A DNA stretch of 64,000 nucleotides from Escherichia coli (GCF_013122565.1 NZ_CP053258.1), one strand, 5' to 3'. Shown: positions 11,689-26,639, numbered from the stretch's first letter. Program-made: numbers and translations. The notes: generated by a model from the letters alone, not told the origin.

Positions 11689-12147
11689 GATATGGGGTTT
11701 GGTCGTTGTTAATGAGCACGAATCATGACCGCCAATGGCTGGATTCTCCCTTGATTTATGTTGGTGCGCATAATGTATATTATGTTAAATTGACTGCGGA
11801 AGTCCTTTACTTCACCATTCACTCTACATACAGATAAATCAATACGTTGTGATTTATGACTTCCCTCCCGTTTCTTTTGTTAGGTTCATTATAGGGAATT
11901 CAAGATATCTATGTTTGGAAGCTCCACGCAGTAGCAGCCGGTGCGGTGGCTCTCTATGCCCGCCCTGTCTTTCATCCGTTTGCCCGTCAACATAAAGGTA
12001 TTACCGCCTTGCCCGGGTGGATGTCCAGCCTGCAGGGAAGCCCGGTGACCCTCATCGGTAATGTATTCCCGCTTGTTGTCAGTCTGAACAGTGTTCTTTT
12101 GTAGTGGCCAAGTAATATTGGACACTACAGAAGTGAGGGCCGGCATA

Positions 12148-15100
12148 TTATCTGAAGCTGTATTTTATCCCCAGCGCTCCGGAGATAGCATTGCTCCCGT
12201 GACCTCCTGCCTGATATGCGACTCCGCCATTCACTGACAGATTTTGAGTAATCACCCCATCAATACCTGTCTTTATCTCTCCCTGATTTCGGCCACCTGA
12301 CAACAACTGGCTGTCACCACTCATTTTAACACCAAATTCATGAGTGTTATGGATCCAATTTGCCTCTATATACGGACGGAACTCCCGCCCGGTATCCTTA
12401 TCCAGGGTGCTTTTCACATTCCAGGATGCACGAATACCTGCTTTTGTCTGAAGATTATTTTTCCCAGTGCCCTGTACCACAGTTCCGTTATCTTCCTGAT
12501 GTGTATCCGGAGTAACCCCCATCCAGATAGCCTGCAGATGAGGCTGTAACCAGAATTCACCTTTAATTCCCTCAGGTGACGTCCATGTATGCACATTCAG
12601 GTTATACCCTCCGCCCACGGAAGCGGTTAAACCATTCAGGTTATATTTTTCTTCTTCCAGCCCGTCGCCTTTCACTGATGCATTAAACCAGTTATATTGC
12701 ATCCAGGTTTCAGCAAAGAGGCCTGTTGCATTTGCCCCATTCTGATACCAGGTTCCGTATAACCCGGCCGAATAACCATCCAGTGTATTTCTGGCCCGTT
12801 TCTTACTCGTGTGGTTTATCGTTTTACCTTTTGCGTTTGCATAGCCACCCATAATGCCCAGGGTAAAGTCACCCAGTTTTTCAGCGTGGTATTTATAAAT
12901 GTCCCCTCCAAGTTGATTGATAAATTGATTGGTTGTTGTTTTATTTTGCCCATCACTAAGCTTACCAGAGGTTCTTCCGCCCGTAATCTTCATCCACACA
13001 GATGCAGACTCAGGCTGTGTATTATCACTCACGGCACTGAATTGCTTACGCTCATTCAAATCCATGAGGAACAGTGAGTTAGCCAGTGCCATATTGGTAG
13101 CATAACTTCCGTTCTCCGGTCTGTATTGCCGGGTATCAGATGTGGGAAGATGACTGGTTAAATACCATCCCTTATTATCTGTCCCACTCACGTTTCCTTT
13201 CTGCAGTGTGTAATCATAAGCTCCGGCAACCACGCGGTTCTTCAGAGAGAATTCTGCATCAGAATTTCCCTCTATAGAAATAATATTAATACCCTCTCTC
13301 GTCTGACCACCACTGCCACCTTCATTGACATAAACGATGTCACTTTGACCAGAGGTATTACCTTTCACCACCAGACGATCCGTAAGAGAATTATCTCCTT
13401 CAAGCACACCACCAAGAGAAATAACACTACCCGGTGTCCCGGTATAATTTGCCACGGTAAGAGTATTACCTGCACTTTCTTTTGTAGGATTCAGAATGAT
13501 ATTTTTGTTATTAACAAGACTGCCATTCACAGTAGCAGAGAGCAGCTTTGCCGTACCAAAGCTTAAGTCAGCATCATTCGTAATATTCCCGTTTATAATG
13601 CTGTTATTAATGACAACGCTTCCATTGTTATTAACCGAACCATTAATTGTTGCCTGGTCTGAGATGTTTATATAGGCATTCTGGCTGACAGCCATATCTG
13701 CATTGACTACTGCAGAACCCAATATAATCCCACCATTTTTAACGTTAACCCCCCTCGCCTGTGTCAATGTACCTTCATAAGACATGAATCCTGAGTTATC
13801 TTTGATAAGAGCACCATTCCCTGACAACTCTGTATTAAAATCATAATCGCCAGCAAGATTGAGAATGAAATCGCCATCATTCTTAATTTTTGCTCCGGCT
13901 ACAATACCATCAGTATTGATTGTGGTTGTTCCGTCAAGAGCGCCCCCCTCATCGATTCTTAAACGACCAGCGGAGTTTACGGTTGTATCGGTTGCTGTAC
14001 CGCCTGATGTTACAGCCAGAAGGCCCCCGTTCTCTAATACAACATTTGATGCATGGTTTTGTGAAACGAAGAAGCTGCCATAGCGGTTTGTTCCGGTAAT
14101 GGTCGCCCCCGTAGAGGTAAACAAATTACCTCCGCCGCTTAATGCAATATTCAGCGCACTGGCACCTGCATCCACGCGTATTTCTCCGCCATTTTTGATA
14201 ACAGTTCCGCTTACGTTCCCTCCTTCATATACAAACTGGAAGCCCCCCTCATTGATAACAGTAGAAGAAGCACTCCCCCCCCCGCTTACCGCCTGTAATC
14301 CTCCGCTGTTCAACACCGTTCCGTAAGCAACCCCACCTGAGAGCACATATTCCCGGCCGTCATTATTTGCCACAGTACTGGTTGCAGAAGCCCCTGAATG
14401 AATATACTGCCGCCCTTCCTTATTAAGGATTGTACCAGCCACATTGCCTGCATAAGCGTTTAACCTGCCATTCTGATTTACACTTGCTCCTGACACGGTA
14501 CCACCAGAAACATTGATCATGCCGCCGTCAAAAATTTGAGTTCCAGATGCCTCGCCACCTGAATAGACAGTTTGCTTGCCGTCAGAGTACACTTCAGCAG
14601 CAATGGCACTGCCGCCAGAAGAGACGTTCTGGTTACCGCCGCTTAGTTTTGTTCCCGTGGCTGTACCACCTGCACTGACGCGCTGGAAACCGCTGGTATT
14701 AACAGTAGCACCAGTGGCTTCACCATTGCTGTATATATACTGGTTTCCTCCATCATTGATAATGGCATTATAAGATGCACCACCATTTGAAACATTTTCG
14801 CGCCCACTATTATTAATCATGGTACCACTGGCAAGACCATTCGATAGAACACTCTGTGTTCCTCCACTGTTAATAATGGTGCTCTCCGCATAGCCTCCTG
14901 ATGAAATATTCACATAACCACTTTGATTTATTCTTGTACCAGAAGCTATGCCATCGGCATAGATATTTTGCTTACCACCAGAGAACACTTCAGTAGCACT
15001 GGCTTTACCCCCAGAGGAGATATTCTGTGTACCACCGCTCAGTTTTGTTCCCGTGGCTATGCCACCCGCACTGACTCGCTGAAAACCGCCGGAATTAACC

Positions 15101-15735
15101 ACCGTAGCGCTGGTACTGCCTCCGGAAAGAATATTTTGTGTGCCTGAGCTATTAATAGTGGTGCCAGAGGCAATGCCACCACTACTGACACGTTGCTGAC
15201 CACCCGAACTGATATTTGTATCTTCAGAGATACCACCGGATAAAATCGTCTGGTTTCCACCGTTAAAAATAATGGTGCTTGATGCATGACCAAGATTATA
15301 GATGTTCTGAGCTCCGCCACTTAAGTTTGTTGCAGAAGTAACTCCTCCAGAACTAACACGTTGCACCCCTCCAGAATTTACAATGGTACTTATTGCAGTT
15401 CCTGAGTTCCCAACGTTCTGAGCTCCCGAACTATTAACTGTTGTAGAGGTGGTTTTCCCTCCATTGTTGACGTTCTGTATTCCCCCGCTATTTACTGTGG
15501 CGTTGCTGGTTTGACCATTTGAATAAACAACCTGTGTTTCTCCGGAAGAGACAACTCCGTTAGAAACAACACCACTAGAAACGTTTTGTGCAAAAGCATT
15601 TCCGACAGTAGAAGCTACTGTTAATACCAGAAGTGTGTTTTTCGCAAGGACGAAGCCATGTCCTCTGGCTAACTCAGAGGCCACAACCCATGCCTGCCGG
15701 GAGCTATTCCATACAATGCTGTATGCCCTGTTCAT
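12148..15735 (-). CDS. AIDA-I/TibA-like self-associating autotransporter adhesin
   Basis: 1195-aa ORF with extended signal peptide motif (MNRAYSIVWNSSRQAWVVASELARGHG). The passenger holds about 20 degenerate 19-residue repeats (x-SGG-x-Q-x-V-SSGG-x-AS-x-T-x-VN), the hallmark of heptosylated AIDA-I/TibA-type adhesins, and a C-terminal beta-barrel domain. It lies immediately downstream of a heptosyltransferase gene. Possibly EhaJ-like; I cannot confirm that. Confidence 0.8.
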   Translation of the reverse strand: MNRAYSIVWNSSRQAWVVASELARGHGFVLAKNTLLVLTVASTVGNAFAQNVSSGVVSNGVVSSGETQVVYSNGQTSNATVNSGGIQNVNNGGKTTSTTVNSSGAQNVGNSGTAISTIVNSGGVQRVSSGGVTSATNLSGGAQNIYNLGHASSTIIFNGGNQTILSGGISEDTNISSGGQQRVSSGGIASGTTINSSGTQNILSGGSTSATVVNSGGFQRVSAGGIATGTKLSGGTQNISSGGKASATEVFSGGKQNIYADGIASGTRINQSGYVNISSGGYAESTIINSGGTQSVLSNGLASGTMINNSGRENVSNGGASYNAIINDGGNQYIYSNGEATGATVNTSGFQRVSAGGTATGTKLSGGNQNVSSGGSAIAAEVYSDGKQTVYSGGEASGTQIFDGGMINVSGGTVSGASVNQNGRLNAYAGNVAGTILNKEGRQYIHSGASATSTVANNDGREYVLSGGVAYGTVLNSGGLQAVSGGGSASSTVINEGGFQFVYEGGNVSGTVIKNGGEIRVDAGASALNIALSGGGNLFTSTGATITGTNRYGSFFVSQNHASNVVLENGGLLAVTSGGTATDTTVNSAGRLRIDEGGALDGTTTINTDGIVAGAKIKNDGDFILNLAGDYDFNTELSGNGALIKDNSGFMSYEGTLTQARGVNVKNGGIILGSAVVNADMAVSQNAYINISDQATINGSVNNNGSVVINNSIINGNITNDADLSFGTAKLLSATVNGSLVNNKNIILNPTKESAGNTLTVANYTGTPGSVISLGGVLEGDNSLTDRLVVKGNTSGQSDIVYVNEGGSGGQTREGINIISIEGNSDAEFSLKNRVVAGAYDYTLQKGNVSGTDNKGWYLTSHLPTSDTRQYRPENGSYATNMALANSLFLMDLNERKQFSAVSDNTQPESASVWMKITGGRTSGKLSDGQNKTTTNQFINQLGGDIYKYHAEKLGDFTLGIMGGYANAKGKTINHTSKKRARNTLDGYSAGLYGTWYQNGANATGLFAETWMQYNWFNASVKGDGLEEEKYNLNGLTASVGGGYNLNVHTWTSPEGIKGEFWLQPHLQAIWMGVTPDTHQEDNGTVVQGTGKNNLQTKAGIRASWNVKSTLDKDTGREFRPYIEANWIHNTHEFGVKMSGDSQLLSGGRNQGEIKTGIDGVITQNLSVNGGVAYQAGGHGSNAISGALGIKYSFR
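14298..15558 (-). repeat. Tandem degenerate 19-codon repeats in the adhesin passenger, including two near-identical ~130-nt direct repeats at about 14580-14710 and 14970-15100
   Basis: Visible at DNA level: ACCGCCGCTTAGTTTTGTTCCCGTGGCTGTACCACCTGCACTGACGCGCTGGAAACCGCTGGTATTAAC versus ACCACCGCTCAGTTTTGTTCCCGTGGCTATGCCACCCGCACTGACTCGCTGAAAACCGCCGGAATTAAC. Confidence 0.7.
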
Positions 15736-15749
15736 TCATCAACAACCTT

Positions 15750-26412: not shown

Positions 26413-26418
26413 AACGCA

Positions 26419-26450
26419 AGCAGGCAGAGATATATGTCTGCCTGCTTTCT
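26419..26450 (+). terminator. Terminator-like hairpin after tcuC
   Basis: AGCAGGCAGA / TCTGCCTGCT 10-bp stem, 8-nt loop, followed by TTCT. Confidence 0.5.
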
Positions 26451-26639
26451 CCAGTGCGCCGTAAACCGTGGGCAGCGTGGCACGGGAGTTACGTCACCGG
26501 GCTCTATGCCAACAGTTCAGTGAGTTCGCCGGCGCATCGATGGCTGGTTATGCCAGCAATGTTCAGAGGGAAGAATATTCGTGTGATCATAGCTTGCTTA
26601 TTCCTTGCCTGGGTTAAATTTTCAGACGGCTCAATCCAT

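Follow-up and report, generated by a model that had tools for sequence, protein, structure and literature searches.

The chromosome dimer resolution site of E. coli, dif, is essential for segregation and lies where replication and FtsK polarity converge. The host recombinases XerC and XerD can integrate foreign DNA in the central region of such sites, as is the case for CTXphi, TLCphi, VGJphi and the gonococcal genetic island, which are grouped here as integrative mobile elements exploiting Xer recombination (IMEX). Other mobile elements bring their own enzymes. GInts carry at their 5' end the operon ginABCD, encoding two catalytic tyrosine recombinases, a recombinase-fold protein and a small protein (PMC5385486), and they have been placed at an ABC-transporter gene and at ssb, with a XerD-arm target unreported (PMC5385486, PMC10214605). 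The IS1202-family 'dif hunters' ISAjo2, ISKpn21 and ISSen13 are DDE elements that insert on the XerC side, at a distance of 3-5 bp, and generate target duplications (Harmer et al. 2023, PMC10132070). In this work, a 64,000-nt stretch of E. coli DNA (NZ_CP053258.1), referred to as the window, was analysed for an accessory block that lies between hipA and a remnant of yneL, directly beside dif. This block is probably a decayed, integrase-less remnant of at least one site-specific island that was inserted at the outer end of the dif XerD arm and was later remodelled by insertion sequences (IS) and deletions. The literature searched, which included work on IMEX, GInts, SE elements and the IS1202 family, yielded no description of the present hotspot or of targeting to the XerD edge, although this absence is no proof of novelty.

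Limits and distribution of the block

The existence of the accessory block is confirmed, with limits that can be refined to 11791-26667 of the window. Alignment with the empty site of avian pathogenic E. coli (APEC) O78 shows homology being lost after 11790 and returning at 26701, and in the occupied site of GMM076 it returns at 26668. An earlier note on this DNA, made from the sequence alone, had set the limits at 11689-26453; a block is indeed present there, but those positions span the hipA stop to the tcuC terminator and not the true ends. The four modules that it had described between hipA and yneL were all recovered on the strands given, both in the open reading frame (ORF) list and with family models. 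Its reading that the region lacks an integrase and a tRNA also stands: no integrase or recombinase ORF was found in 11791-26700 in the ORF list or with curated family models, a tRNA/tmRNA scan of 9000-29000 gave none, and an Rfam scan detected no family in the region. A tRNA-associated genomic or pathogenicity island was considered as a class for this block and rejected on these three absences.

The empty arrangement of hipA, dif, a 207-bp spacer and the yneL remnant is present in 3,061 of 5,426 complete E. coli genomes (~56%), K-12 included. Non-empty sites hold various islands, every one of them diverging at the same base, the last of dif. None of the complete genomes carries 80% or more of the window's block, and a deleted derivative occurs in only six, without 12006-12771 and 14051-17339 and with the adhesin pair destroyed. 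The complete block is present in a few draft assemblies, one assembly of a sequencing run giving a 100% match over 21 kb. The block is accessory and rare.

The left breakpoint falls on the last base of dif (GGTGCGCATAATGTATATTATGTTAAAT), which has its sole 28/28 match in the window at this place. The KOPS motif (FtsK-orienting polar sequence) GGGNAGGG is found to the left of dif on the plus strand only (7997, 8777) and to its right on the minus strand only (24691 through 63837), the island itself adding a single motif, in the permitted and not in the forbidden orientation. The maximum of the cumulative GC skew also coincides with dif. Given the dif match, the switch in KOPS polarity and the skew peak, 11763-11790 is the functional terminus site. 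The earlier note had overlooked dif at this breakpoint, where the polarity switches.

The alignments of thousands of genomes to dif-spanning queries end at the last base of dif, and the hipA-yneL site is a species-wide insertion hotspot. Its other occupants include an island with aldo-keto-reductase and LysR genes, a defence island with tcuRABC, and a 2.5-kb remnant in Nissle 1917-type strains. The dif locus of E. coli G3/10 (NZ_CP060075.1 2520000-2563000) bears an island of more than 40 kb with TnsA, a Mu-type transposase (Tn7-like), defence-type genes and many IS copies, and the right end of this island joins the spacer at GTTAAAT (the match starting at query position 171). Cargo of the anti-phage type was also seen in islands stacked at dif, where a 1,882-aa ATPase accompanies a DEAD/DEAH helicase and an SMC-like ATPase accompanies an Mrr-like nuclease (loci L012 1332-10777 and L019 11856-17515). 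The dif hotspot may be a defence-island site.

Junction repeats and scars

The earlier note had reported no flanking direct repeats and had regarded the mechanism of acquisition as unclear. However, the block is flanked by the direct repeat GTTAAATT, at 11784-11791 and 26613-26620. It abuts dif, and it begins with the left end of a family of integrase-bearing elements. The earlier interpretation is partly supported, since the mosaicism was rightly seen and the supposed absence of a mobility signature was wrong. The motif GTTAAAT corresponds to the outer 7 nt of the XerD arm and would represent a 7-bp crossover core. By analogy with independent junctions in four other loci (L004, L005, L009 and L019), the copy at 26613-26620 is taken as the boundary and would be an attR scar.

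These junctions all end in GTTAAAT in the orientation of dif. They comprise the right end of the GMM076 island (L004) and a junction in GCA_052983875.1 (L009), three junctions in strain 0-4 (L005; between elements 1 and 2, elements 2 and 3, and element 3 and the spacer) and three stacked scars in a metagenome scaffold (L019). In GCA_052983875.1, which has a different module upstream, homology to the window begins exactly at 11784, the G of GTTAAAT, and not in the central region of dif. The four bases preceding the scars are AATA, ATAA or CTGG, versus TTAT in the XerD arm, and no part of the scars resembles the spacer or the XerC arm. A feature expected of a GInt, insertion at a specific site between direct repeats that are short, imperfect and of hybrid origin, is present here. 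Inverted-repeat symmetry of the element ends is clear in one end type only (AAACCCA...TGGGTTT, L004). With regard to gene content, the DUF2254 protein of the GCA_052983875.1 locus is ubiquitous (Rac-prophage type), and the metagenome scaffold holds the same module as that locus.

Beyond the right-hand scar, the window retains the beginning of an older adjacent element, whose counterpart in strain 0-4 holds a pseudogene for a PrlF antitoxin. The remainder of this PrlF-remnant element and the 207-bp spacer are deleted in the window, the deletion reaching into yneL. As a separate observation, the window has T as the first base after GTTAAAT on the left side (11791), where the CP52E group has C (L001 6294); the first 215 bp of the block contain only one other difference, and this base lies at the edge of the putative crossover.

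The left end and its recombinase-bearing relatives

The first 98 positions of the block, from 11791 to 11888, match the leader that in intact relatives separates the Xer site from the first recombinase gene. This left end is 90-92% identical to the sequence directly following dif in ~1,100 genomes. With strain 0-4 it shares 74% identity in the spacer between dif and integrase and 81% in a second copy located just upstream of tcuRABC. Fifteen left ends, that of the window and 14 others, can be aligned through a TTA[AC][GC]TTCA[TC] box, whose distance from GTTAAAT is constant, and an AAATCA box deeper inside.

Intact relatives were found in strain 0-4 and strain PKF8, which carry the same element, and as a related element on large enterobacterial plasmids including p65COLEC-1. 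In these, the left end is followed by genes for two tyrosine recombinases, a ~790-aa protein and a ~145-aa protein, then by cargo, and GTTAAAT closes the right end; in the p65COLEC-1 element this end could not be identified, being disrupted by IS. The four operon proteins measure 456, 516, 787 and 147 aa in strain 0-4 and 446, 521, 788 and 142 aa in p65COLEC-1. Those of strain 0-4 gave a match to Pfam Phage_integrase (1.5e-6) and weak matches to NCBIfam recombinase models. Homologues of the first recombinase were detected by tblastn on 267 plasmids. In all seven enterobacterial plasmids sampled (first recombinase 33-100% identical), an Xer site with a perfect TTATGTTAAAT arm stands directly before the left end, while the XerC arms, spacers and upstream DNA differ among the seven. 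Furthermore, one plasmid of enterotoxigenic E. coli (ETEC) carries an Xer site, the left end and tcuRABC and no recombinase genes, the same state of decay as the window.

Two further observations were made on these relatives. A sequence of ~55 nt, TGAGGTGAGCATATCACCTCTGTTCAGGTGGCCAAATTCAGTGTGCCACTTCAG, stands where the first recombinase gene would begin in tcu elements (strain 0-4, L005 7865-7925; L006 3875-3935; L008 3930-3985), and on plasmid p48B2a it adjoins the AIDA segment, beside an IS66 fragment; it probably represents the end of an IS or an intron, at the point where recombinase genes were lost. Moreover, an ISKpn21-type (IS1202-family) transposase gene lies just past the XerC arm in four plasmids (L006 2806-3609, L023 1-1228, L024 1-1249 and L025 1-1225), whose Xer sites have a GInt-like element on the XerD side; two unrelated types of mobile DNA thus settle at opposite edges of a single site.

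Origin of the block

In the account favoured here, a tyrosine recombinase would exchange strands within the 7-bp GTTAAAT common to the element and the Xer site, and the element's own recombinases would catalyse the insertion. The bacterial target would be recognised through the remainder of the Xer site, and target recognition might depend on arm-bound XerD. Because the remainder of the site would be what is recognised, newcomers would pick intact dif over a scar; each would land between dif and the previous occupant, leaving stacked modules separated by GTTAAAT scars and a dif that stays functional. The window would have retained one left end and one right-hand scar after losing the recombinase genes. 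Its interior would consist of the tcuRABC cargo, a sugar cassette of the Enterobacter/Raoultella type and a plasmid-type AIDA-I/aah segment between IS3-type ends. Different stacked elements, fused by deletion, may have supplied the left end and the tcu cargo. A further deletion would have taken the 207-bp spacer together with the next older element and part of yneL, after which the finished block would have been exchanged between E. coli lineages.

With regard to the last step, the window and CP52E are 99.8% identical from 11722 to at least 27466, whereas the hipA-side flank is 97.6% and the distal fimbrial genes are 98.0% identical. Since the block is more alike than its flanks, it was exchanged between the lineages recently, after they diverged. 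In the left flank, position 11721 is the last to differ, 42 bp short of dif. The exchanged tract was joined on the left at dif or no more than ~70 bp from it, and on the right in the adjacent fimbrial region.

A broader proposal, put forward more tentatively, is that an undescribed enterobacterial clade of GInt-like, multi-recombinase elements crosses over at the outer 7 nt of the XerD arm, in chromosomal dif and plasmid sites alike, the block in the window being one of its fossils.

Several points weigh against this account. The window holds no recombinase gene, and hence nothing in it is self-mobile. GTTAAAT at 26613 and the sequences on both its sides are common to the window and strain 0-4, and this junction is not independent proof of a boundary; a genome with the PrlF-remnant module right after dif was sought and none was found, the only two carriers sharing the same junction. 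Taken alone, the occurrence of GTTAAAT on the same strand and no more than 100 bp from the breakpoint has a chance expectation of ~1-2%. The left end is nearer to the phylogroup-B2-like type that follows dif (90-92%) than to the tcu-side type of strain 0-4 (81%), for which reason the two block ends may derive from different elements, and two or more stacked elements may have been fused in the block. The Pfam scan of the ~790-aa protein gave no significant domain, and the relatives are called GInt-like on the strength of their layout. Four homologues from Acinetobacter plasmids (~38% identity) have no Xer site upstream, so that the association with Xer sites is confined to the enterobacterial clade. 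Finally, the spread between lineages took in the right flank and, as the right joint lies in flanking DNA, homologous recombination contributed at least on that side.

This last point also speaks for a different explanation, in which the terminus is a non-specific hotspot shaped by IS activity, illegitimate joins and homologous recombination in the flanks, the sharp edge at dif resulting from selection against damage to the site. IS3 remnants and IS-type ends do occur at internal joints, Tn7-like and IS-rich islands are among the other occupants, deletions are frequent at the site, and the block spread together with its right flank in a tract of 99.8% identity to at least 27466. Such processes leave unexplained the GTTAAAT at every independent junction between modules, the conserved left end in its fixed register and the same arrangement behind unrelated plasmid Xer sites, and this explanation is considered unlikely. 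Still less likely is that the block arose as a canonical IMEX, a circular DNA with a dif-like site integrated by XerC and XerD in the central region of dif. Its position exactly at dif and the lack of an integrase in the window would fit, and the stacked arrays beside dif resemble the IMEX arrays of Vibrio cholerae (PMC5357621). However, a scan of the window and related loci for secondary dif-like sites gave at best 17-18/28 inside the island, which is background level, and the IMEX reading was dropped on this ground. Of the XerD arm, the scars retain just the outer 7 nt, with XerC-arm and spacer positions unrelated to dif, whereas a crossover in the central region would leave a full XerD arm in each scar and shared homology starting 4 nt earlier, neither of which is seen. 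The intact relatives, moreover, encode two or three recombinase-like proteins of their own.

The alternative of an ancestral E. coli gene order that K-12-like genomes lost by deletion, which the earlier note had named as the finding that would speak against its reading, is excluded. The yneL remnant is truncated in all configurations seen, which points to some ancient loss at the locus. Yet the empty configuration is found across phylogroups in 56% of the complete genomes (3,061/5,426), the block is rare (a deleted derivative in six of them and complete in a few drafts), its GC content spans 42% to 57%, and its carriers are far more alike in the block than in the flanks.

Cargo modules

The cargo is ordinary and consists of known gene families, as had been noted earlier; AIDA-I, Aah, TcuA, TcuB and TcuC all score above curated cut-offs (Table 1). 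The earlier view that composition is heterogeneous and that the modules have separate origins is also borne out. The GC content is 41.6% in aah, 45.7% in AIDA, 52-54% in the GH5 (glycoside hydrolase family 5) and lacI genes and 57.1% in tcuA, with core flanks at 45-49%. The AIDA-I/aah module is plasmid-like, the sugar cassette is syntenic with chromosomes of Enterobacter, Raoultella and Lelliottia, and tcuRABC is found in plasmids and in other islands.

AIDA-I and aah are predicted to give a glycosylated adhesin. The product identical to the AIDA-I protein has the Pfam domains ESPR, AIDA and AC_1, and 15 stretches of the heptosylation-target repeat TIGR04415 were found. An autotransporter adjoining a strand-loop-strand O-heptosyltransferase, the arrangement that defines the AIDA-I/Aah pair, is present. 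The segment 12128-17127 is 95.5% identical at nucleotide level to plasmid p48B2a, in which IS66 and IS3 flank it, and in the window it is bracketed exactly by IS3-type ends in direct orientation (12100-12125 and 17128-17153). The homologue of the IS3 remnant is labelled 'IS3 family transposase, incomplete' in RefSeq. The fragment at 11890-12100 is the leftover of an earlier cargo.

The sugar cassette (17656-21400) would serve the uptake and hydrolysis of a glycoside. It corresponds to a syntenic three-gene unit in Enterobacter, Raoultella, Lelliottia and related chromosomes, with 78-84% nucleotide and 80-89% protein identity; among the chromosomes sampled there was no close donor. The GH5-like protein had no match among PDB sequences.

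The tcuRABC module would allow growth on tricarballylate. Its profile scores exceed the NCBIfam cut-offs (TcuA 786/369, TcuB 708/524 and TcuC 727/445 bits), and a LysR regulator, the FAD-dependent dehydrogenase TcuA, the 4Fe-4S protein TcuB and the MFS symporter TcuC follow one another in this order. No TcuR-specific model was among the 25 matches listed, and every LysR-family match listed was under its cut-off; the homologue of the regulator carries the name tcuR in RefSeq. Large plasmids and other chromosomal islands hold copies that share 92-96% identity with the module and in which its limits (21406 to 26427-26577) recur.

Table 1. Features of the window at and around the accessory block.
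Feature	Position	Strand	Basis or remark
hipB	~10100-10366		Left of hipA
hipA, left flanking core gene	10366..11688	+	ORF list; RefSeq annotation of homologous loci
Chromosomal dif GGTGCGCATAA-TGTATA-TTATGTTAAAT	11763..11790	+	XerC arm on hipA side, XerD arm on island side
Left copy of GTTAAATT	11784..11791	+	Overlaps dif XerD arm
Conserved left end (leader) of element family	11791..11888	+	Between Xer site and first recombinase gene in intact relatives
Gene fragment annotated 'chromate transporter' in ~55 other E. coli chromosomes	11890..12100		92% identity
Orphan IS3-type terminal repeat	12100..12125	+	Direct repeat of IS3 remnant start (17128-17153), 81% identical
AIDA-I family autotransporter adhesin, 1195 aa, intact	12148..15735	-	NF033176, 2438 bits (cut-off 1200)
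Aah/TibC-type autotransporter O-heptosyltransferase, 386 aa	15750..16910	-	TIGR04414, 602 bits (cut-off 200)
IS3-family remnant	17128..17604	unassigned	~87% identity to IS3/ISEc31-family transposase genes; all frames interrupted
GPH-family symporter	17656-19071	-	NCBIfam TIGR00792, 308 bits
GH5-like glycosyl hydrolase	19122-20207	-	Pfam Cellulase, weak match
LacI-family regulator	20393-21400	+	NCBIfam LacI family
tcuRABC module	21406..26577	+	tcuR 21509-22435, tcuA 22533-23936, tcuB 23923-25062, tcuC 25117-26412
Terminator hairpin	26418-26447		After tcuC
Right end of block with second GTTAAATT (26613-26620)	26578..26620	+	Same junction in strain 0-4
First ~45 nt of older neighbouring element	26621..26665	+	89.8% identical to strain 0-4 (L005) 13365-13451
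yneL-like AraC-family helix-turn-helix pseudogene remnant, right flank	26668..26890	+	Homology to empty-site and other genomes; RefSeq annotation

Flanking genes and host lineage

Just upstream of hipBA, the window has a gene of the ECSE_1600 autotransporter family (1,806 aa, 4457-9877), which together with AIDA-I places two large autotransporters within 10 kb of each other in the terminus region. In strain 0-4, the ECSE_1600-family gene is truncated and joined to the 3' end of hipA. On the other side, past yneL, the window has an intact fimbrial operon (27278-33687) encoding a FimA-like subunit, a chaperone, an 883-aa usher, ydeS, ydeR and ydeQ. K-12 and the CP52E group have lost the major fimbrial subunit, the chaperone and the N-terminus of the usher, with an IS3 at that deletion in CP52E. 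The core DNA of the window (9001-11790 and 30000-54000) is at most 98.5% identical to any of the 5,426 complete genomes, and the hipBA flank is only ~96% identical to most of them; the host lineage seems to be poorly represented among complete genomes.

Implications

What stands out at this locus is that a GInt-like family of elements is proposed to target the XerD edge of dif. The cargo is less remarkable and would matter mainly for host adhesion and niche metabolism. Islands that home to the outer edge of dif without destroying it would explain the variability of the hipA-yneL interval in E. coli. The XerD arm shared by chromosomal and plasmid sites would give adhesins, catabolic operons and defence systems a route between large plasmids and the terminus, in either direction. 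If this holds, dif would serve E. coli generally as a point at which cargo and defence genes accrete and fossil elements form arrays; ~44% of the complete genomes have no empty dif site, a figure that counts non-empty sites and not fossil arrays. GTTAAAT followed by the left-end box at a fixed distance would offer a simple marker for delimiting such islands. The account also raises the question of whether the recombinases of these elements cooperate or compete with XerD at dif.

Comparison with known systems

As regards cargo, the gene order of the known AIDA-I/Aah and Salmonella-type tcuRABC systems is kept in the block, the AIDA-I of the window being ~90 aa shorter than the family profile. 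Compared with those systems, the location beside dif and the joining of both in one block are unusual.

With regard to mobility, the block shares with IMEX the insertion at a dimer resolution site, the tandem pile-up beside dif and the retention of one functional dif. It differs in that the junctions lie outside the central region, the scars lack the XerC arm, the spacer and the inner XerD arm, and the relatives have tyrosine recombinases of their own. A dif-like site with both arms and a second one at the far junction, by which an IMEX is recognised, were not found, the best internal match being 17/28. With the IS1202 family and the pdif modules of Acinetobacter, the present elements have in common that mobile DNA homes to Xer sites on chromosomes and plasmids, and the plasmid Xer sites encountered here match tabulated dif-like sites such as AGTGCGTATAA-GATGGA-TTATGTTAAAT (PMC10132070). 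Unlike in the IS1202 family, insertion occurs here on the XerD side and only 7 nt are repeated. Each pdif module is enclosed by two entire Xer sites in inverse orientation; in the window there is a single complete Xer site with no inverted copy, and this class was rejected for the block.

The closest likeness is in layout and concerns the intact relatives, whose gene order is that published for GInts and unlike that of SE elements (PMC5385486, PMC10214605). They have a four-gene operon at one end, with a recombinase, a larger recombinase, a long protein without clear catalytic motifs and a small protein. Their cargo is variable and their far end short and poorly conserved, and the flanking repeats are short and imperfect, with a crossover of 6-7 nt. 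The block in the window differs from GInts in having no ginABCD-type operon. Moreover, the target is the outer XerD-arm end of dif and of plasmid dif-like sites, at which the elements are stacked in arrays.

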